Assembly (NCBI GenBank): GCA_033762295.1 | Contig: JANRLW010000064.1 | Coordinates: 96,001 to 160,000 of the forward strand | Length of the DNA stretch: 64,000 nucleotides | Source of the DNA: Capsulimonadales bacterium | GTDB lineage: Bacteria > Armatimonadota > Armatimonadia > Armatimonadales > Armatimonadaceae | Reading direction: 5' to 3' | Shown here: positions 391-53,831 of the stretch, piece after piece | Position numbering within the stretch: the first letter of the stretch is position 1 | Layout: each line of letters opens with the position of its first letter | Made by a program: the position numbers and the translations under genes | The notes under the pieces: generated by a model | Told to the model about the DNA's origin: nothing | What the model saw: the letters and a program-made list of their open reading frames with translations, nothing else | Database searches by the model: none

Positions 391-2355
391 CTAACGTCCC
401 TTGATCGCGCCGAAGGTGAGTCCGCGAAGCAGGTGCTTGCGCATCAGGAACGTGAAGAGCGCCGCCGGGATGACGAAGACGACCGCGCGCACGGCGATTC
501 TCTGCCACTCGATGACCCCCCCGCCGAGGACCGCCGTGATCGACGGCGGCGCGGTCAGCAGTTTGCCGGTAGACAGCAACTGTGCCAGCGCGTATTCGTT
601 CCAGGCGTTCAGGAAACAGAAGACGGCGGTCGCCGCCATTCCCGGTACGATCAGCGGCAGCGTCGTCTTGCGAAACGCCTCCAGTCGGGTGTAACGGTCC
701 AACAGGGCGGCCTCCTCGTACTCCGGCGGCACATCGTCGGTGAAACCCTTCATCAGCCAGACCGCGAACGCGCCGTTGACCGCCGCATAGAGCAGGATCA
801 GGCCAAGGTGCGTGTTCAATAGACCCAGTTGACGGAACATCAGGAAGACGGGGACCGCGACGACGACCGGCGGAAGCATCCGGGTCGACAGAATAAAGAA
901 CAGAGCGTCGTTCTTCGCCTTGATCCGGAACCGGGAGAAGGCATAGGCGGCGAGGGTGCCCATGCCGACCGCCAGCACGGTCGACGTAACGCCGATAATC
1001 AGGCTGTTGACCAGTTGACCGGGGAAGTCGCGGGCCGAGGAGGATTCGGGCCGAATCAGCTCGGCGTAGTTATCGAACGTCGGTGTGAACACGAACTGCG
1101 GCGGCATGACGTTTACCGCTTTGAACGGTTTCAGCGAGGTGGCGACGATCCAGTAGAGCGGGAGCATCGACAGGATCAGCGCAACGGTCAGGCCGGCGTA
1201 GGCGAGGTAGGTCTTTGCCCGGTCGGGCAGACGAAAGATCAGCGCGCCGAACACCCCCATGGCCGCCGCGATGCCAAGAGCGACCGGACCGCCGATCGAG
1301 TACAGAAAGGTCAGGAGCAGAAGCGAGCCGAGATAGGGCAACACCTTCGGCAACACCTGACCGATCGGCGACTCTCCGAACCCGGCAAAGAGCGGGGTTG
1401 CGTCCGGCGAGGTCTCGCCCTTGACCCGGTTCAGCAGAAGTAGGTAGAGGTTTGTCAGGCCGATAATCACCAGCAGCACGATATAGGCGAGAGCGCAGGC
1501 GCGCCCCGTATCCCAGTTTCGAAGCGCTTCGCGATAGACCTGGATCGAGACCGTCTCCGCCGAGTTCGCCGTTCCGCCCGCGGTCATGATCCACGCCAGG
1601 TCGAACATTTTGAAACTGTCGAGGGTCCGGAACAACAGGGCGACCATCAGGAGGGGGGCAATCATCGGCAGAGTGATATAGCGGAACCGAAACCAGGCGG
1701 ATGCCCGGTCGACCGCCGCCGCCTCGTACAGGGTGGCGGGAACCGACGATAGACCGGCCAGCGCGATCAGCATGATGAACGGCGACCACATCCACGTATC
1801 GGCAATTACCACCGACCAGAGCGCATGGTCCTTATCGAACCAGTTGATCGGGTTCGCCGGGTCGGACAGGCCGATCTTACTCAGCAGGAAATTCACCAGT
1901 CCGAACGTGGGATCGAGGAGAAACTTCCAGAACAGGCCGACCACCGCCGACGAGAGCATCATCGGGAGGAGAAAGAGGGTGGTGACGATGCTTTTCAGCC
2001 GGAAGGGACGATTGAGCATCAGCGCCAGACCGAAACCGATCAGAAGTTGCAGCCCGACCGCCAGGAGGACGAACAGCGCCGTGACCCGGAACGACTGCCA
2101 GACCTCCGGGCGGGAAAGCATCTCGGTGTAGTTGGCATTGCCCACCCAGACCGGCGCGATCTTCGGCGCGTCCGCCTTATACTTGCAGAACGACAGGTAG
2201 AGCGACCAGAAAAGCGGAAAGACGTTCATCCCGATCAGCAGAACGAGAATGGGCAGAACGAAGAGGTTGGCGACGGCGCGATCGGAAAAGCCGGCGCGTT
2301 TGGGCGCGGGCGTCGTCCGGGCGATCTCTACGGCGTTGGGCACGGTGACGGACAT
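391..2355 (-). CDS. Carbohydrate ABC transporter permease, fused MalF-like + MalG-like (two BPD_transp_1 domains)
   Basis: Likely start MSVTVPNAV (ATG 2355) inside the 836-aa ORF. Two EAA loops (LYEAAAVDRAS..FRYITLP; YEEAALLDRYT..FRKTTLP), many TM helices, and MalF (DTWMWSPF) and MalG (FLNAWNEY) signatures. Confidence 0.88.
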   Translation of the reverse strand: MSVTVPNAVEIARTTPAPKRAGFSDRAVANLFVLPILVLLIGMNVFPLFWSLYLSFCKYKADAPKIAPVWVGNANYTEMLSRPEVWQSFRVTALFVLLAVGLQLLIGFGLALMLNRPFRLKSIVTTLFLLPMMLSSAVVGLFWKFLLDPTFGLVNFLLSKIGLSDPANPINWFDKDHALWSVVIADTWMWSPFIMLIALAGLSSVPATLYEAAAVDRASAWFRFRYITLPMIAPLLMVALLFRTLDSFKMFDLAWIMTAGGTANSAETVSIQVYREALRNWDTGRACALAYIVLLVIIGLTNLYLLLLNRVKGETSPDATPLFAGFGESPIGQVLPKVLPYLGSLLLLTFLYSIGGPVALGIAAAMGVFGALIFRLPDRAKTYLAYAGLTVALILSMLPLYWIVATSLKPFKAVNVMPPQFVFTPTFDNYAELIRPESSSARDFPGQLVNSLIIGVTSTVLAVGMGTLAAYAFSRFRIKAKNDALFFILSTRMLPPVVVAVPVFLMFRQLGLLNTHLGLILLYAAVNGAFAVWLMKGFTDDVPPEYEEAALLDRYTRLEAFRKTTLPLIVPGMAATAVFCFLNAWNEYALAQLLSTGKLLTAPPSITAVLGGGVIEWQRIAVRAVVFVIPAALFTFLMRKHLLRGLTFGAIKGR

Positions 2356-2489
2356 AAACACCGTATTCGGTGTTTCTCCCCCGGTCACCTTCCGAAACCG
2401 GCGGGCGGATTCGATCGCAGGGACGAAAGCGTTCCGATGGGTTCGGTCGCCGGAAAGACGACCGAACCCGTTCGTCGGCGCGTCGCCGA

Positions 2490-47197: not shown

Positions 47198-47258
47198 CTG
47201 CCCGGAGGAACAAAGCGAAACGATGTTTGCTTTTGAAGGCCGTTTTTTCGGGAGGAAC

Positions 47259-47822
47259 ATGACGGAGCGAGAACGGTTTGCCCAGATCGCCAAGCAGTGC
47301 GAGGCGGCGTTGATGCGCGCGGCGCTGCGTCTTTGTCGTGGCGGCAATGACTGTGCTCAGGAACTGGTACAGGAGGCGCTGGTCAGAGGATACGAGGCGT
47401 TTCGCGCCGGTAAGTTCCGCGAAGGGTTCAGTCCTTCCGCCTGGCTGACGCGGATCCTGACCAACAATTTCATCAACGAATATCGCCGGAAGCAAAAGTG
47501 GGACGCCGGGGTCGATGTCGACACCCTGACCGCGGGTGGCGAGGTGGGACCGGAAAGTACCCGCGCCCGCGCCTCCGAGGTGCCCGAATCGGCGCTCCTG
47601 GAGGGGGAGTTTGACGAACCGCTCGAAAAGGCGCTCAACGCGTTGCCCGAAGGTTTGCGAATCGTGGTGCTCCTGGTCGACGTCGAGGAACGCTCCTATC
47701 AGGAAGCCGCCGAACTGTTAAAAATTCCGGTCGGTACGGTCCGTTCGCGGTTGTCACGCGCCCGGTACGCTTTACAGGATATGCTGAAGGAATATGCGCG
47801 AAACCGAAGGATCATCTCATGA
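47259..47822 (+). CDS. ECF RNA polymerase sigma factor
   Basis: RBS GGGAGG; AQELVQEA, AWLTRILTNNFINEYRR, LVDVEERSYQEAAELLKIPVGTVRSRLSRAR. Confidence 0.93.
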   Translation: MTERERFAQIAKQCEAALMRAALRLCRGGNDCAQELVQEALVRGYEAFRAGKFREGFSPSAWLTRILTNNFINEYRRKQKWDAGVDVDTLTAGGEVGPESTRARASEVPESALLEGEFDEPLEKALNALPEGLRIVVLLVDVEERSYQEAAELLKIPVGTVRSRLSRARYALQDMLKEYARNRRIIS

Positions 47823-48148
47823 AAAACTGGTTATATCAATGGCTCGATTCTCTCTTTCCGCATACCAAGGACAGTGAAACGCCCTGCCCGCACATGAAGG
47901 GCGTGTTGAGCGAACTCTCGGATGACACCGCTTCCGGCCCGAAACGCTGGTACGCGGTGCAGCATGTGGCCGGATGTCCCGGTTGTTCGCGGACACTCGA
48001 ACGATTGCGCTTGCTGCGGCAGCGTCTGCAGGGATTGAACCGGGAAGCGGAACCGTCCGAGAAGGAAAAGGTGATGCCCCTGTCCCCGGAACGTCGTGCC
48101 GCCGTCGAGGCAGCCTGGGCAAAACTGGATGAAACCTCCCCGAGATAG
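47819..48148 (+). CDS. Zinc-finger (ZAS, HxxxCxxC) anti-sigma factor, soluble
   Basis: C..M...LS...D...QHVAGCPGC; ATGA overlap with the sigma gene; no TM segment. Confidence 0.82.
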   Translation: MKNWLYQWLDSLFPHTKDSETPCPHMKGVLSELSDDTASGPKRWYAVQHVAGCPGCSRTLERLRLLRQRLQGLNREAEPSEKEKVMPLSPERRAAVEAAWAKLDETSPR

Positions 48149-48312: not shown

Positions 48313-50103
48313 ATGACGGGAAATCGGCTCAAAGGGCGCCTGCCAAAGATCGGCATCCGTCCGACCATCGACGGTCGCTACGGCGGCGTGCGCGAATCGC
48401 TCGAAGATATCACAATGAATATGGCACGGGCGACCGCGCAGCTGCTGATCGATAACCTGCAGCATGCCTGCGGCCTTCCGGTGGAGGTCGTCCTGGCGGA
48501 CACCTGTATCGGCGGCGCGGCGGAGGCGGCGGAGTGCGCCGAGAAGTTCGCGCGCGAAGGCGTCGGTGTCCACATCACCGTGACCCCGTGCTGGTGCTAC
48601 GGTTCCGAGACGATGGCGCTCGAACCCGACCTGCCGACGGCGGTCTGGGGATTCAACGGGACCGAACGCCCCGGAGCGGTCTACCTGGCCGCCGTCCTTG
48701 CCGGACACAATCAGAAAGGGCTGCCGGCATTCGGAATCTACGGTCGGGACGTGCAGGACGCCGGGGACGCCAATATTCCGGCCGATGTCGCGGCAAAGCT
48801 TCTTCAGTTTGCCCGCGCCGGTCTGGCCGTGGCGACCATGCGCGGGACCTCCTATCTGGCGATGGGCGGCGTCTCCATGGGAATCGCCGGGTCCGTCGTC
48901 GATCCGACCTTCTTTGAAACCTTTCTCGGAATGCGCTCCGAAACCATCGACATGACGGAGTTCATCCGGCGGATGGAGCGCGGCATCTACGATCGGGACG
49001 AGTACGAACGCGCTCTGGCCTGGGTAAGGACGAACTGCCGCGAAGGCAAGGATTGGAACACCGAGGACAAAAAACGTTCGCGCGAGCAGCTGGATCGAGA
49101 GTGGGAACAGTGCGTCCGAATGGCTCTGATCGCTCGTGACCTGATGATCGGAAACCCGAAACTGGCCGAGATGGGCTTTGTCGAGGAGTCGCGGGGGCAT
49201 AATGCCCTGGCGAGCGGCTTCCAGGGACAGCGGCAATGGACTGATCACTTCCCGAACGGCGATTTTTTGGAAGCCATCCTGACCTCCTCGTTCGACTGGA
49301 ACGGCATCCGGCAGCCGTATATGGTCGCGACGGAAAACGATGCTCTCAACGGTGCGTCCATGCTCTTCGGACACCTGCTCACCGGCGGAACCGCCCAGCT
49401 GTTCGCCGACGTTCGAACGTACTGGTCACCGGAAGCCGTCCGGCGGGTCACCGGACATGAACTCACGGAAAGGGCGGCGGGCGGCATCCTCCACCTGATC
49501 AACTCCGGCCCGGCGGCGCTCGATTGGACCGGCGAACAGACCGAGGACGGAAAACCGGCGCTCAAGCCGTTCAACCGGATCACCGAAGCCGAGGCGCAGG
49601 CGTGCCTCGACGCGACCCGCTGGTGTCCGTCGATGTCCGAGTATTTCCCCGGTGGCGGCTGGTCCACCGACTTCACGACCCGTGGCGGGATGCCCGTGAC
49701 CATGTTCCGGATCAATCTCGTCAAGGGACTGGGGCCGGTTCTCCAGATTGCCGAGGGCTACACCGTCGATCTGCCGGAAGAGGTGCATCGCGCCCTGGAC
49801 GAGCGGACCAACCCGACCTGGCCGACCACCTGGTTCGTGCCGAATGTCACCGGGCAGGGCGCGTTTACCGATGCCTACACGGTCATGCTTCACTGGGGCG
49901 CGAACCACGGCGCGATCTCCTACGGCCATATCGGTGGCGATCTCATCACTCTGGCCTCCATGCTGCGGATTCCCGTCGATATGCACAACGTCCCGACCGA
50001 ACGGGTCTTCCGACCGTCCGCCTGGATGCGGTTCGGTAGCGGAATGGACGAAACGGGCGCCGATTACCGGGCCTGCGCCGTCTACGGACCGCTGTACGGC
50101 TGA
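48313..50103 (+). CDS. fucI: L-fucose isomerase
   Basis: [78 protein letters not shown]. Confidence 0.96.
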
Positions 50104-50179
50104 ATACGACCGGGGACCGATCTTTTCTCGAACGGAGGCGGGGGAACGGTTCCCGGAAGGTGTGCAATATACCCCCGGG

Positions 50180-50188
50180 TGGTATAAT
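50180..50188 (+). promoter_or_regulatory. Extended -10 promoter (TGnTATAAT), probably driving a leaderless transcript
   Basis: TGGTATAAT at 50180-50188, GTG start 6 nt later, no SD in between. Confidence 0.6.
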
Positions 50189-50194
50189 GCCTCC

Positions 50195-50683
50195 GTGACA
50201 CAGCGTGGATTCCGGTTCCGGCTCCCGATCGCGGTGATTCTGGCGGCTTTCCTTATCGGATCGCTACCATTGCCGCAAGTGCGGGCAATCTATCGCCCGC
50301 ACCGGCCCGGTGCGACGACCGTTGGGACGACCGTTGCGACGACCGTTGCGACTCCCAATTCGGCCCGGTGCGCGATGAAGGCGGCCGGGAAGCCGTGCTG
50401 CTGTCCGTCGGCGCTCGCCGGGCCGACCGGGGACACCCCTTCCGAGGAGGTGGCATGTCCTTGCGCCCTGGGCTCCGGCGAACCCCTGCCACCCGACCCG
50501 ACGACCTCCGTTCCGGTGTCTCCTTCCCCGGCGGACTCTCCGACGCGAAGTCACATCTGCACGCCGGCGAATCGGGGGCAGGAGCCTCCGCTTTCGCCGG
50601 CGACCAACTTCGACCCCGTCCCCTTCCGATCCGGAGAGCGTCCGCCCGACGCCGGACGCGCCCCGCCTTCGCCTGACGCGTAA
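50195..50683 (+). CDS. Cys-rich putative leader/arrest peptide with C-terminal RAPP motif (DUF2946/CruR/CutF-like architecture)
   Basis: 3' part of ORF 49748-50683 from GTG 50195: hydrophobic N-terminus, CAM..PCCCP..CPC, Pro-rich tail, GRAPPSPDA*. Confidence 0.7.
   Translation: MTQRGFRFRLPIAVILAAFLIGSLPLPQVRAIYRPHRPGATTVGTTVATTVATPNSARCAMKAAGKPCCCPSALAGPTGDTPSEEVACPCALGSGEPLPPDPTTSVPVSPSPADSPTRSHICTPANRGQEPPLSPATNFDPVPFRSGERPPDAGRAPPSPDA
50314..50352 (+). repeat. 12-bp tandem repeat x3 (GACGACCGTTGS) encoding TTV(G/A)
   Basis: gacgaccgttgg gacgaccgttgc gacgaccgttgc gac. Confidence 0.8.
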
Positions 50684-50742
50684 CGTTGTCTCGGCGGCCT
50701 GTTTTCGCGCCGCCACCGTGTCCACGCTCAGGAGAGGTTTCC

Positions 50743-51918
50743 ATGCTACGTTCCTTTTGGGTTGCCTTGCTCGGCATCGCCCTTCTTTCGTTGCCATCGC
50801 CCGTCCGCGCGCAGGGGAAAAACCCTGTCGAATCGTCAGGACGATATCGTGTCGAACTGCGACTGCCTCCGGCCGGCGTCTATGCCGGAGAGGAGATCGA
50901 TATCGAATTTCGTGTGACCGATACCGCAAAAGCCGACCCGGTTCTCGGTGCGCCCGGAGTCATCCGCGCGCGGATCAAAGCGGCGGTGACCATGCCCTCC
51001 ATGGCCGGGATGCCGGCGATCGTTCCGAAGATCCATTCCGAAGGGGTGCCCGGTGACTACGGTCTGGTCGCGACCTATCCCCACGGCGGGGAGTACCGGA
51101 TCGCCCTCAGTATCACGCCGCCCGGGTCCGAAAGTCCGTTCACGGTGGCGTTCCTCATTGATGTCGGGGATGCGGACGCGCGGCCGAAAGGGCGACCTGT
51201 GAACGCTCCGTACCGCCTCGACGTCAGGTCCAAACCCGAAAAGCCGACCGGGCAGCAGCCGGTCGATCTCGCTCTGCGGGTCCTCGAACGCGCCACAGGC
51301 AGGCCGGTTACCGCGTTCGAGATCGTCCATGAGCAGCCGATGCACCTGATCGTGGTTCGTGAAGACCTCGGGGCGTTCTTCCATGAGCACCCGACACGGA
51401 ACGAGGACGGAACGTTCACCCATCGCTTCACCTTCCCGTCCGGCGGGTTGTGGCGGGTGTTCGGGGATGTCGCGCCGGTCGGCGCGGGCAGTCAGGTACT
51501 GGCAACGACCATCAAGGTCAACGGACCGGTGCCGCCCAGAGCGCCGCTGACGACCGTCCGCGGACCGGTCACCGATCGGGAACTGACACTGACCTTTCCG
51601 ACGGATCGCCTGCCGGAACGCACGCTGTTTCCCTGGACCTTCGACCTGAAGGACTCGGCCGGGATGCCGATCACCGATCTTCAGCCGTGGCTCGGCGCGC
51701 CCGCCCACCTTATTCTGATTTCCGGGGATGGCGAAACGTTCGTCCATTCCCACCCGGATGAGTCCGACCCGAAGAACGGAACCAACGGCAAACTGACCTT
51801 TCTCGTCCGGTTCCCCCGATCGGGCATCTTCAAGGGGTGGCTCCAGTGCCAGCGGGCGAACGAGATCCGGACGCTGCCCTTTGTCGTGCGGGTGCAGGGG
51901 AAGGCGGCGAGCCGATGA
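50743..51918 (+). CDS. Secreted putative heavy-metal (copper)-binding protein: YtkA/FixH-like domain plus two HxHP domains
   Basis: RBS AGGAGAGG; signal peptide; TMPSMAGM; VHEQPMHLIVVREDL..FFHEHP; LQPWLGAPAHLILI.....FVHSHP. Confidence 0.75.
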   Translation: MLRSFWVALLGIALLSLPSPVRAQGKNPVESSGRYRVELRLPPAGVYAGEEIDIEFRVTDTAKADPVLGAPGVIRARIKAAVTMPSMAGMPAIVPKIHSEGVPGDYGLVATYPHGGEYRIALSITPPGSESPFTVAFLIDVGDADARPKGRPVNAPYRLDVRSKPEKPTGQQPVDLALRVLERATGRPVTAFEIVHEQPMHLIVVREDLGAFFHEHPTRNEDGTFTHRFTFPSGGLWRVFGDVAPVGAGSQVLATTIKVNGPVPPRAPLTTVRGPVTDRELTLTFPTDRLPERTLFPWTFDLKDSAGMPITDLQPWLGAPAHLILISGDGETFVHSHPDESDPKNGTNGKLTFLVRFPRSGIFKGWLQCQRANEIRTLPFVVRVQGKAASR

Positions 51919-53831
51919 GCGATTTTCGTTGCCGCTACCTGCCGTTCGTCGTGCTTCCGTGGGTGCTTCTGATTGCGCTGCTCGGAGGACCGAGCTCGGC
52001 GTCGGCGGCGCATCCGCCGAAGAAGGGCGTGAAACGTCCTCCCTCAAAAGCGGCCGCGCAGATCCGCGCGGCCGGACAGCGGATCGACGCGGCGAAAAAG
52101 CGATTGCGTGCGGAGGGGAAGTACGGCTGCTGTCTCAAACCGGCAGCCGGTCGGACGGTCGGGGGCTGTGAGCATTGTCTGAAAACCGCGGGGGAATGCC
52201 GCTGTGCCGCGAACCTTCGGGCGGGCAAAGGGGTGTGCGGACAGTGCGTCGCCGGGTGGAAAGCCGGACAGGGGGCCATCGCCGGCATCGACCGGGACCG
52301 GGTCCGATGGTCGCCGTCCGAGCCGTCCGAGTCGAAAAACGCGGCGACCGAAGTACCCGAACTGATCGAGGCCCGCGAACTCCTGACCATGGCGAAACGA
52401 ACGATGGTCGCCGAGGGACGTTACGTCTGCTGTATCGGGGACGGCGGCTGTGACGAATGCGCCCTGGAGGGGGACTGCCCGTGCGGCATCGAACTCAACG
52501 AAGGCGCGGAAGGGCAGGGGGTCTGCGGTTCCTGCTACGACGGCTGGCATGCCGGTCACGGCAGCTTCGAAGGGGTGGAGATTGCGTCGGTACGACTCAA
52601 CGTCCAGCCGGGCCACGGAAGCGGGGACGACCGGGACGTGTTCGGAATGTTCGGTGACTGGCGGATGAACCGCGAGGGGTCGGGAACCGCCTGGCTGCCG
52701 GACTCCTCGCCCCTGTACGCGCAAATGACCCGCTGGGGCGACTTCCGGACCATGCTCCACGGGTACGGCTACGGCGTTTACACCGATCAGAAAGCCCGGG
52801 GAAACCGGCGCGGCGACGATGGGACGTTCGTTGCTTCCCAGATCATGGGAATGGCCTGGCAGCGCAAAGGGAATGCGATCTTTGGTGGGCGGATGATGCT
52901 TTCGGCCGATCCGTGGACGATCGGAGATTCGGGCTATCCTCTCCTCTTTCAGACGGGGGAGACGGCGAACGGCCGGCCACTGGTCGACCGCCAGCATCCG
53001 CATGACCTGTTTATGGAACTGGCCGCCGCCTATACGCAAAGGCTGACACCGAACGGTGGCGCGTTATCGCTATATCTGGCTCCGGTGGGCGAGCCGGCCA
53101 TCGGTCCGCCCGCCTTCGCCCACCGACCGTCCGCGTTCGACAACCCCGAAGCCCCGATTTCGCATCACTGGTTCGACTCCACCCATATTACGTACGGCGT
53201 GGCGACGGTCGGACTGGCGAATCGCGCCGTCAAACTGGAGGGAAGCCTGTTCACCGGGCGCGAACCGGACGAGAACCGGGAACGGTGGGACCGTTTCCGC
53301 TGGGACTCGACGTCCGTTCGCCTGGCGGCGAACCCGACCCGCGATCTGGCGTTTCAGATCAGCCAGGCGTGGCTCCGACGACCGGAAGCCCTGGAACCGG
53401 ACACCGATCAGCGGCGATACACCGCCTCCGTCCTCTACAACCGGCCGCTGGCCGAGGGGCGCGCCAATCTTCAATCCTCCCTGATGTGGGCGCGTAATCG
53501 GAAGTATGCGCCGGACCATGCCCCGGCGAACAGCGATGCGCTTCTGTTCGAGACCGCCTTTCTCGCTCCGGAAGGGACTCTGTTCGGAAGGTGGGAACGA
53601 ACGGACAAGGACGAACTCTTTCCGGGAATGGAGGACCACCGCGCTTTCCGGGTCAACAAGTTCACTCTGGGAGGCGTTCATAACCTTGCCGCAACGCGCG
53701 GAGCGGAACTGGGTATCGGAGGCAGCGTGTCCGCTTTCTCGATTCCGGCCGGGTTAAAGCCGGACTACGGTTCCTCACCGCTGACGTTCAACCTTTTCCT
53801 GCGGCTCCGGTCGGCGCGGATGATGCACTGA
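51915..53831 (+). CDS. Duplicated 8-Cys domain fused to a putative outer-membrane beta-barrel
   Basis: ATGA overlap; signal peptide; two CC/CxxC/CxC/CxxC repeats; REGSGTAWLPDS, QTGETA...DRQHPHDLFMELA, GEPAIGPPAF.HRPSA, HHWFDSTHITYGV, GREPDENR; alternating beta-strand C-terminus. Confidence 0.75.
   Translation: MSDFRCRYLPFVVLPWVLLIALLGGPSSASAAHPPKKGVKRPPSKAAAQIRAAGQRIDAAKKRLRAEGKYGCCLKPAAGRTVGGCEHCLKTAGECRCAANLRAGKGVCGQCVAGWKAGQGAIAGIDRDRVRWSPSEPSESKNAATEVPELIEARELLTMAKRTMVAEGRYVCCIGDGGCDECALEGDCPCGIELNEGAEGQGVCGSCYDGWHAGHGSFEGVEIASVRLNVQPGHGSGDDRDVFGMFGDWRMNREGSGTAWLPDSSPLYAQMTRWGDFRTMLHGYGYGVYTDQKARGNRRGDDGTFVASQIMGMAWQRKGNAIFGGRMMLSADPWTIGDSGYPLLFQTGETANGRPLVDRQHPHDLFMELAAAYTQRLTPNGGALSLYLAPVGEPAIGPPAFAHRPSAFDNPEAPISHHWFDSTHITYGVATVGLANRAVKLEGSLFTGREPDENRERWDRFRWDSTSVRLAANPTRDLAFQISQAWLRRPEALEPDTDQRRYTASVLYNRPLAEGRANLQSSLMWARNRKYAPDHAPANSDALLFETAFLAPEGTLFGRWERTDKDELFPGMEDHRAFRVNKFTLGGVHNLAATRGAELGIGGSVSAFSIPAGLKPDYGSSPLTFNLFLRLRSARMMH

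Follow-up and report, generated by a model that had tools for sequence, protein, structure and literature searches.

CruR (Bp2923; PF11162, DUF2946) of Bordetella pertussis is a small upstream open reading frame (uORF) that heads a copper-related operon and encodes an N-terminal export signal, a Cys motif, a body predicted to be poorly structured and a RAPP sequence a few residues before the stop codon, the distance between the Cys motif and RAPP being conserved (PMC9426467). Its regulation needs both RAPP and CXXC (PMC9426467, PMC12992588), and arrest at RAPP, shown in vitro, leaves Pro3 in the P site of the ribosome and Pro4 in its A site (PMC12992588). CutF of Rhodobacter capsulatus (cutFOG) is a co-translationally exported leader with a Cys motif that acts as a periplasmic copper sensor, and its stalling is proposed to open the stem-loop that shields a Shine-Dalgarno (SD) sequence (PMC9973294; bioRxiv 10.1101/2025.02.05.636593); in the CutF case, the ribosome tunnel holds about 30 residues and a further 17 or so span the membrane (PMC9973294). 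DUF2946, to which CutF is also assigned, has as its defining feature a distance of 45 (+/-2) residues from the Cys motif to RAPP or the proline motif (PMC9426467; PMC9973294). ApdA, ApdP and SecM likewise are exported leaders with RAPP/RAGP near the C-terminus that control the next gene (PMC7897499, PMC10951233, PMC10987492), and a 2025 GTDB-wide survey (EMBO J, PMC12992588) reported small, mostly secreted RAPP/RGPP uORFs upstream of metal-homeostasis genes in many phyla. Here we analyze a leader ORF of the same design in a 64,000-nucleotide (nt) stretch of a Capsulimonadales (Armatimonadota) genome (contig JANRLW010000064.1, positions 96,001 to 160,000; hereafter the window). CutF is its closest match in mechanism. 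We consider it probable, though far from certain, that this leader is a copper-sensing arrest-peptide switch layered on CsoR control, forming a three-gene operon with a YtkA-like and a porin-like gene.

The leader and its immediate neighbors are laid out as follows.
50195..50683, plus strand: leader ORF, 162 amino acids (aa), GTG start; hydrophobic N-terminal helix, Cys cluster, Pro-rich spacer, RAPP, four codons, stop
50219..50260, plus strand: predicted N-terminal signal/membrane helix (residues 9-22), preceded by Arg residues
50369..50464, plus strand: Cys cluster C59, C68-C70 and C88/C90, the putative metal-sensing part
50465..50656, plus strand: weakly conserved Pro/Ser/Thr-rich spacer of 64 residues from CPC to RAPP, the length ruler
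50657..50668, plus strand: RAPP arrest motif (codons CGC GCC CCG CCT), followed by SPDA and the stop codon
50180..50188, plus strand: extended -10 element TGGTATAAT, with the predicted transcription start at or beside 50195
50743..51918, plus strand: YtkA-like secreted protein (PF13115 YtkA, 35.6 bits) with Met/His motifs
48313..50103: fucI, with Pfam Fucose_iso domains

A sequence-only reading of this DNA had placed the -10 element, the GTG, the ORF, the Cys cluster, RAPP, two complementary strands and an inner hairpin, and direct reading found all of these coordinates correct. It had also described the ORF as hidden in a larger one that overlaps fucI; indeed, the leader frame is nested in a mechanical ORF of 311 aa (49748..50683) that overlaps the 3' end of fucI in another frame. 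Between TGGTATAAT and the GTG at 50195 lies GCCTCC, which holds no SD, so that a leaderless start, with the -10 ending 6 nt before the GTG, is plausible from the sequence. We rejected translation from another in-frame GTG, at 50162, because this codon lies 5' of both the -10 and the operator described below, its GGAAGG is only 1 nt away, and the N-termini of homologs align with 50195. The cysteines are found at positions 59 (CAM), 68-70 (CCC), 88/90 (CPC) and 122. In the AlphaFold2 (AF2) model, helix 9-22 alone is confident (block predicted local distance difference test (pLDDT) of 92), and the remainder is predicted to be disordered. The GC content at the three codon positions of the leader frame is 0.669/0.675/0.748, with the maximum at position 3, which is consistent with a coding frame rich in Pro, Ala, Ser and Thr. 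Judged from this and from the comparative data below, 50195-50683 is a genuine gene and a member of a conserved, unannotated family.

A protein search with the 162-aa ORF in 41 related genomes returned weak matches only (best non-self E=0.0029), and a syntenic match in one of them, G008 (E=0.015), was the first lead. Because the peptide search was nearly blind, homologs of the downstream YtkA-like gene were taken instead and their upstream DNA was read. Such homologs were found in 29/41 of the related genomes, and 11 of the 14 loci read carry a uORF of the same layout and strand that ends in R[AG]PP. An alignment of the YtkA-like protein (A2) was then used to scan species-representative genomes, which yielded 69 loci, 64 of them with sufficient upstream DNA. 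To be counted, a uORF had to lie on the same strand, carry a hydrophobic helix at its N-terminus, contain both CC and CxC, and have R[AG]PP separated from its stop by 1-5 residues. By this definition, a uORF lies directly 5' of the YtkA-like gene in 32/64 loci, and in 5 more it stands ahead of an intervening YHS-domain gene. The presence of RAPP-ending uORFs upstream of homologs of 50743-51918, which the sequence-only reading had suggested searching for, was thus seen in 37/39 loci labeled Armatimonadota (one titled just 'bacterium'), and in 0/25 loci labeled Acidobacteriota or otherwise.

The alignment of 34 distinct leader sequences (A3) has a mean column identity of 24%. Its only invariant columns are C70, C90, R155, P157 and P158; C59, C69 and C88 are each at least 90% conserved, and a basic-then-hydrophobic N-terminus equivalent to that of the window leader is present in every aligned member. 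Conservation of RAPP at homologous loci, on which the earlier interpretation had been staked beforehand, was borne out, as R-x-PP is invariant in 34/34 aligned members, and 145/152 of the wider relatives examined have R[AG]PP within 12 residues of the C-terminus, followed by 1-8 residues (1-5 in 143/145). The leader therefore carries the hallmark of RAPP-type arrest peptides, a conserved R-A/G-P-P near the C-terminus of a small ORF, and is predicted to act as one. Between the last Cys motif and the Arg of RAPP lie a median of 63 residues (interquartile range 62-64); the value falls within 61-65 in 109/145 wider relatives, and the spacer measures 61-64 residues in 11/12 close loci. The length of the Cys-cluster region varies (standard deviation 14.4), unlike this fixed spacer. 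Members of A3 contain 6-11 cysteines and those of the wider set 4-12, with a median of 7-8. Comparison thus shows that the fixed features are just four at the sequence level: a predicted N-terminal export/membrane helix, CC plus CxC, a spacer of roughly 63 residues, and R[AG]PP standing 1-5 codons ahead of the stop.

When 1.84 billion representatives were searched exhaustively with a profile, 353 cluster representatives were retrieved at E<=0.001, nearly all of 130-180 aa and matching end to end, compared with only 3 proteins retrieved by a word-indexed protein search with A3. All the named members seen are 'hypothetical protein' entries from Armatimonadota metagenome-assembled genomes, NCBIfam gave no match for the family, and an even sample of the phylum contained a member in 21/151 genomes. 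A second R[AG]PP was observed exactly 10 residues N-terminal of the terminal one in 13/34 aligned members and 32/145 wider relatives. As ten codons are close to the length of a ribosome footprint, a second ribosome colliding from behind would likewise stand on an arrest motif. The window leader does not have this tandem arrangement; it has ERPP six residues upstream of RAPP. The tandem is carried by a 146-aa paralog in the same genome (G000:C21 = L130 1498..1938, minus strand), which ends in ...PRAPPVGAVPARGPPFFS.

The sequence-only reading had compared the leader with CruR and CutF, including their DUF2946 assignment. The design does match the published descriptions. The family assignment did not hold, however, and the resemblance is thus one of design and not of family. 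The ORF matched no family at E<=1 and is absent from the six-frame matches to PF11162 in its genome at E<=10. At the gathering score of PF11162 (23.7 bits), 0/34 family members pass (one weak match, E=0.24), and 0/96 wider relatives match at E<=0.1. Alignment by hhalign of A3 with A4, the 4 DUF2946-like ORFs of the phylum, gave a probability of 0.8% over 7 columns, a weak test given the small size of A4. The Cys-to-RAPP spacing is 64 residues in the window leader versus 43-47 in the DUF2946-like ORFs of the same phylum, and the family has no single conserved CXXC or CxxxC: what is conserved is CC (69-70), CxC (88-90) and C59. CruR, in contrast, has one CXXC and a 45-residue spacing, where the leader has CC plus CxC (5-6 conserved Cys) and about 63; and the CruR uORF is followed by a TonB-dependent transporter gene after a 162-nt intergenic region with a Rho terminator, whereas the leader is followed by the YtkA-like gene after 59 nt with a putative SD-masking helix. 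CutF differs by its CxxxC, its EF-P-dependent PPP-type motif, its 45-residue spacing and its place in DUF2946, while the leader has RAPP/RGPP, about 63 residues, a poly-Cys putative sensor and, in this lineage, an added CsoR-type candidate operator. It should be noted that the same genome also encodes a canonical-looking DUF2946-like ORF (G000:C18 = L027 1492..1884, minus strand; 20.7 bits with PF11162, under the cut-off), with a His-rich segment, CPFC, 44 residues and RAPPLA-stop, about 375 nt upstream of an ATPase-like gene of the ATP-binding cassette (ABC) transporter type.

The end of the leader may pair with the SD of the next gene through the following elements.
50666..50681, plus strand: anti-SD strand CCTTCGCCTGACGCGT, formed by the last Pro codon, the SPDA codons and the first two bases of the stop codon; its partner in the minimum free energy (MFE) fold is 50724-37
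50724..50737, plus strand: SD-containing strand ACGCTCAGGAGAGG / CAGGAGAGG of the downstream gene, with the SD at 50730-37
50693..50714, plus strand: inner hairpin GGCGGC/GCCGCC (arms 50693-98 and 50709-14) inside the anti-SD:SD helix; its loop has TTTTCG

The MFE fold of 50650-50760 contains a nested anti-SD:SD helix around the inner hairpin, with 14 tail-SD pairs. In full context, the SD of the YtkA-like gene has a predicted unpaired probability of 0.14, which rises to 0.48 when the footprint of a stalled ribosome is masked. The footprint region was taken as the Arg codon to +21, and in 7/12 loci the SD pairs with it above dinucleotide-shuffled upstream sequence (fraction <=0.05). The family was then compared using 22 representatives of clusters at 45% identity. 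The mean tail:SD duplex energy is -14.3 kcal/mol for matched pairs versus -10.0 for mismatched ones, and 0/20000 permutations reach the observed mean; the duplex of the window leader (-19.1 kcal/mol) comes first among the 22 both by row and by column. When 25-nt stretches of coding sequence from the same locus served as decoys, the mean z was -0.90, and 7/22 loci reached the 5% level or fell below it. The MFE folds of 18/22 representatives contain four or more tail-SD pairs, generally around inner hairpins, and inner intergenic hairpins (1-65 pairs) occur in 22/22.

Co-variation is also seen directly when tails of different types are set against their SD strands: CCTTTCCAGGG stands opposite CCCTGGAAAGG for the FQG tail, CCTTTCAAG opposite CTTGAAAGG for FKG, CCTTTCCCG opposite CGGGAAAGG for FPA and, for the FS tails, TTTTCCTGA opposite TCAGGAAAA (FS-TGA) and TTCCTAA opposite TTAGGAA (FS-TAA). 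In the 146-aa paralog, the tail and the SD of the next gene match perfectly over 11 bp (TTCTTCTCCTG versus CAGGAGAAGAA, -18.1 kcal/mol). The anti-SD pairing is therefore shown by comparison to be a conserved and co-varying property of the family, as the sequence-only reading had required of homologous loci, and it stands above chance in comparative sequence tests only. An Rfam scan of 49900-51000 at E<=1 found no family and so no known riboswitch or leader. The inner hairpin was ruled out as an intrinsic terminator, as its U-run is in the loop and not 3' of the stem, and a terminator-like site at 50684-96 is weak and within expectation. Two further sequence patterns were observed in these intergenic regions: TTTCG occurs in 15/34 of them (19 matches versus about 4 expected), and TCGTC or YGTCT-type strings stand just 3' of the stop codon in family loci, TAA CGTTGTCTC being the version in the window (50684-50714).

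The promoter region carries a further candidate element.
50170..50184, unstranded: CsoR-type operator-like inverted repeat TACCCCCGGGTGGTA, overlapping the -10

A two-hexamer promoter scan found nothing at the leader because there is no good -35; in relatives, TATACT, TATTCT or TATAAA lies 8-22 nt ahead of the start codon. The inverted repeat TACCCCCGGGTGGTA agrees at 12/15 positions with TACCCCGTGGGGGTA, which is found on both sides of the one csoR gene of this genome (90.1 bits), next to an ORF that is P-type-ATPase-like as read from its translation. TACC-N5-9-GGTA is present within 70 nt upstream of the leader start in 11/34 family loci (7/22 clusters), where about 0.13 would be expected from a background of 9 matches in 169,471 nt (0.0037 per 70 nt). 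A G/C-tract inverted repeat like those at csoR thus overlies the promoter, as in a CsoR regulon, and we consider it a candidate operator. The 200 nt upstream of the 146-aa paralog contained no CsoR-type site.

The genes that follow the leader also point to metals.
51915..53831, plus strand: third operon gene, encoding a signal peptide, two N-terminal 8-Cys helical repeats and a C-terminal porin-like beta-barrel

The YtkA-like protein, whose alignment of 12 sequences contains the invariant motifs TMPxMxxMP, HxEGxPGDYG, HEHP and HSHP, is a probable periplasmic metal-binding protein judging by these residues; a PDB sequence search with it gave nothing meaningful. The third gene product has no Pfam or NCBIfam match, and its AF2 model (pLDDT 83.2) matches the porins OmpF, Omp32 and BpsOmp38 in Foldseek (E about 4e-11). 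Its gene follows the YtkA-like gene in 60/69 loci, in both Armatimonadota and Acidobacteriota, and the pair probably handles copper in the envelope. Elsewhere in the phylum, YtkA, YHS/TRASH, cupredoxin or MerB domains are present in 10/16 proteins encoded 3' of family members, and other small Cys-rich secreted proteins occur in leader-family operons. The leader therefore heads an operon of predicted metal (copper) homeostasis genes. The link to metals made in the sequence-only reading is supported by two lines, namely the CsoR-type operator over the -10 and these metal-domain genes. The 146-aa paralog (region L130 814..1938, minus strand) is followed by a gene for a secreted protein of 182 aa with abundant CC repeats, and by a small barrel-like ORF.

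In the mechanism that we propose, transcription would start at or next to the GTG from the extended -10 promoter, which a CsoR-type copper repressor could occlude. The nascent leader would be exported co-translationally, and the ribosome would arrest at RAPP with Pro-Pro in the P and A sites, leaving about 63 residues between CxC and the peptidyl-transferase center. With 64 residues from CPC to Arg155, the entire Cys cluster would then lie beyond the ribosome tunnel and the translocon, whereas 45-residue families would place their Cys motif in the channel vestibule. Binding of a metal, most likely copper, to the cluster would alter the pull on the chain and hence the duration of the stall. A ribosome stalled at 50663-68 would cover the mRNA as far as roughly 50678-80, taking in almost all of the anti-SD strand, and the SD at 50730-37 would thereby be freed, allowing translation of the YtkA-like gene and probably of the porin gene. 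After release, the helix would re-form and mask the SD; copper could either prolong or shorten the stall. The stall site is thus placed so that an arrested ribosome would be predicted to disrupt the SD-masking structure. A bolder version, which we offer tentatively and consider doubtful as it stands, is that the family is a convergent class of nascent-chain metal sensors and not a diverged DUF2946: the 63-residue ruler would put a poly-Cys, multi-cysteine copper site outside the translocon, its assembly setting the lifetime of the stall; the second R[AG]PP 10 codons upstream, present in between about one quarter and one third of members, would catch a collided ribosome; and the CsoR operator would add a two-input gate for cytoplasmic and periplasmic copper.

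Several observations weigh against this copper-switch reading. Only genomic context points to copper as the ligand. The leaderless GTG is unusual, as most relatives have an ATG start and a short leader without an SD. The CsoR-type site is present in only that minority (11/34) of family loci, and one-mismatch half-site matches are not rare, with 74 sites genome-wide. As for the RNA, the pairing claimed from this one locus is present in the MFE fold and co-varies across the family, but its own sequence taken alone does no better than chance: 117/200 shuffles are as stable (z +0.34), and since the fold energy is ordinary for the composition, the single sequence proves nothing about the RNA. In addition, 17% of decoy windows from the same locus pair with the tail as strongly as the true SD. 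There is no tail-SD pairing in the MFE of 4/22 representatives (L035, L038, L050 and L056), and pairing is at or below decoy level in the seven-member L043 cluster, L046, L054 and L055. Part of the pairing also comes free, because Pro-Pro codons (CCU CCN) are intrinsically complementary to an SD; the lineage-specific part of the complementarity, judged by comparing sequences, is not free with the motif.

The alternative that deserves most attention concerns the output of the switch and involves one more feature.
50438..50723, plus strand: C>G-rich stretch (C 0.35-0.50, G 0.24-0.31 in 78-nt sliding windows), a putative Rho loading region

As in CruR, the stalled ribosome might mainly prevent Rho from loading at the leader's C-rich 3' half and so control transcriptional read-through into the operon, SD pairing being secondary. 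Windows across 50438-50723 show an excess of C over G of 0.06-0.26, the genome has a rho gene (113.5 bits), and CruR, the best-studied relative by design, acts via Rho termination and not SD masking (PMC9426467), which also counts against the helix-based output proposed above. However, the C-richness follows from the Pro/Ser/Thr/Ala codons of the spacer, so no extra selection is required, and the intergenic region is short (59 nt versus 162 nt in cruR-bfrG) and predicted to be structured. Rho loading also leaves the lineage-specific co-variation of tail and SD unexplained. We therefore regard Rho as the main output as unlikely, though well short of negligible; the two mechanisms could coexist. 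It is a good deal less probable that the leader product itself functions in the periplasm, as a Cys-rich metal-binding protein or lipoprotein (chaperone or sponge) whose RAPP tail only tunes its own synthesis or its stoichiometry with the next gene. Members are rich in Cys (median 7-8), several have a Cys directly after the hydrophobic segment, and small Cys-rich secreted proteins are found elsewhere in these operons. Nevertheless, barely anything is conserved outside the Cys motifs and RxPP (24% mean column identity), the leader is predicted to be disordered, CutF is reported to be rapidly degraded after export (PMC9973294), and the fixed distances from Cys to RAPP and from RAPP to the stop fit a nascent-chain sensor and not a folded product.

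A secretion monitor of the ApdA/ApdP/SecM type, in which the stall would report Sec or YidC activity and not metal, would fit the architecture, since an N-terminal localization signal with a C-terminal RAPP is what substrates monitoring Sec/YidC have. As described in the sources covered, those leaders monitor Sec/YidC, precede sec or yidC genes and lack conserved cysteines; the genes downstream of this family are YtkA-like, YHS, cupredoxin or Cys-rich and never Sec or YidC components, and a secretion monitor gives the invariant cysteines and the CsoR-type site no role, which makes it very improbable. Even less credible is a chance open frame in GC-rich DNA with no gene at all. At 62% GC, long spurious ORFs are frequent, many ORFs overlap here, and the GTG has no SD, but the synteny in 37/39 Armatimonadota-labeled loci, the invariant Cys and RxPP, the 353 relatives matching nearly all end to end, and a GC content at third codon positions that is highest in the leader frame have already refuted it.

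The principle of a copper-sensing arrest leader is already published (CruR, CutF and the RAPP/RGPP survey); no new one is revealed here, and the sequence-only reading overrated the novelty of the locus. Supplementary file 8 of the survey (PMC12992588) lists leader-family members upstream of YHS-domain genes, including one on the L061 contig; the C-terminal 9-mer of the window leader was not found in the part of that file that was searched. The survey's main text has 0 occurrences of Armatimonad, YtkA, tandem, disome or Shine-Dalgarno, and the survey, in the parts of it considered here, differs from the present analysis in having no description of the family, of the 63-residue ruler or of the CsoR link. 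A literature search on arrest peptides, CsoR, RAPP, Armatimonadota and YtkA returned no paper on the leader family. What is new is the description at the level of the family, which is separate from DUF2946, with its putative poly-Cys sensor, 63-residue ruler, tail-SD co-variation and candidate CsoR link. The CruR/CutF design is thus present in a second, sequence-unrelated and unannotated family of at least 353 sequence clusters, and a comparison of 63- and 45-residue rulers could locate where on the path from ribosome to translocon the metal is read. Comparison within the family also yields evidence of unusual clarity that the final codons of an arrest peptide serve at the same time as an anti-SD strand. 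Finally, it suggests a likely copper role and a regulatory logic for a conserved pair of unknown genes common to Armatimonadota and Acidobacteriota, which encode the YtkA-like periplasmic protein and a porin bearing a Cys-rich domain.

Other leaders may stand at YtkA-like genes. In Blastocatellia-type loci (L062 1783..2373, L063 619..993, L064 1276..2358 and L067 1929..2321, plus strand), a different Cys-rich membrane ORF precedes the YtkA-like gene; it has CCC/CC motifs and PPGPP, and its conserved C-terminus is ...LLSRI(A/S)(I/V/L)LRI-stop, not RAPP; it could be a leader of another kind, with its own C-terminal signal. At L056, a 295-nt gap between the leader and the YtkA-like gene (2125..2419) apparently holds another small Cys-rich secreted ORF. 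In the window itself, 47223-48148, 5' of fucI, contains two overlapping ORFs, one of 199 aa that resembles an extracytoplasmic function (ECF) sigma factor and a small one that looks like an anti-sigma protein and has an HxxxCxxC-type motif.

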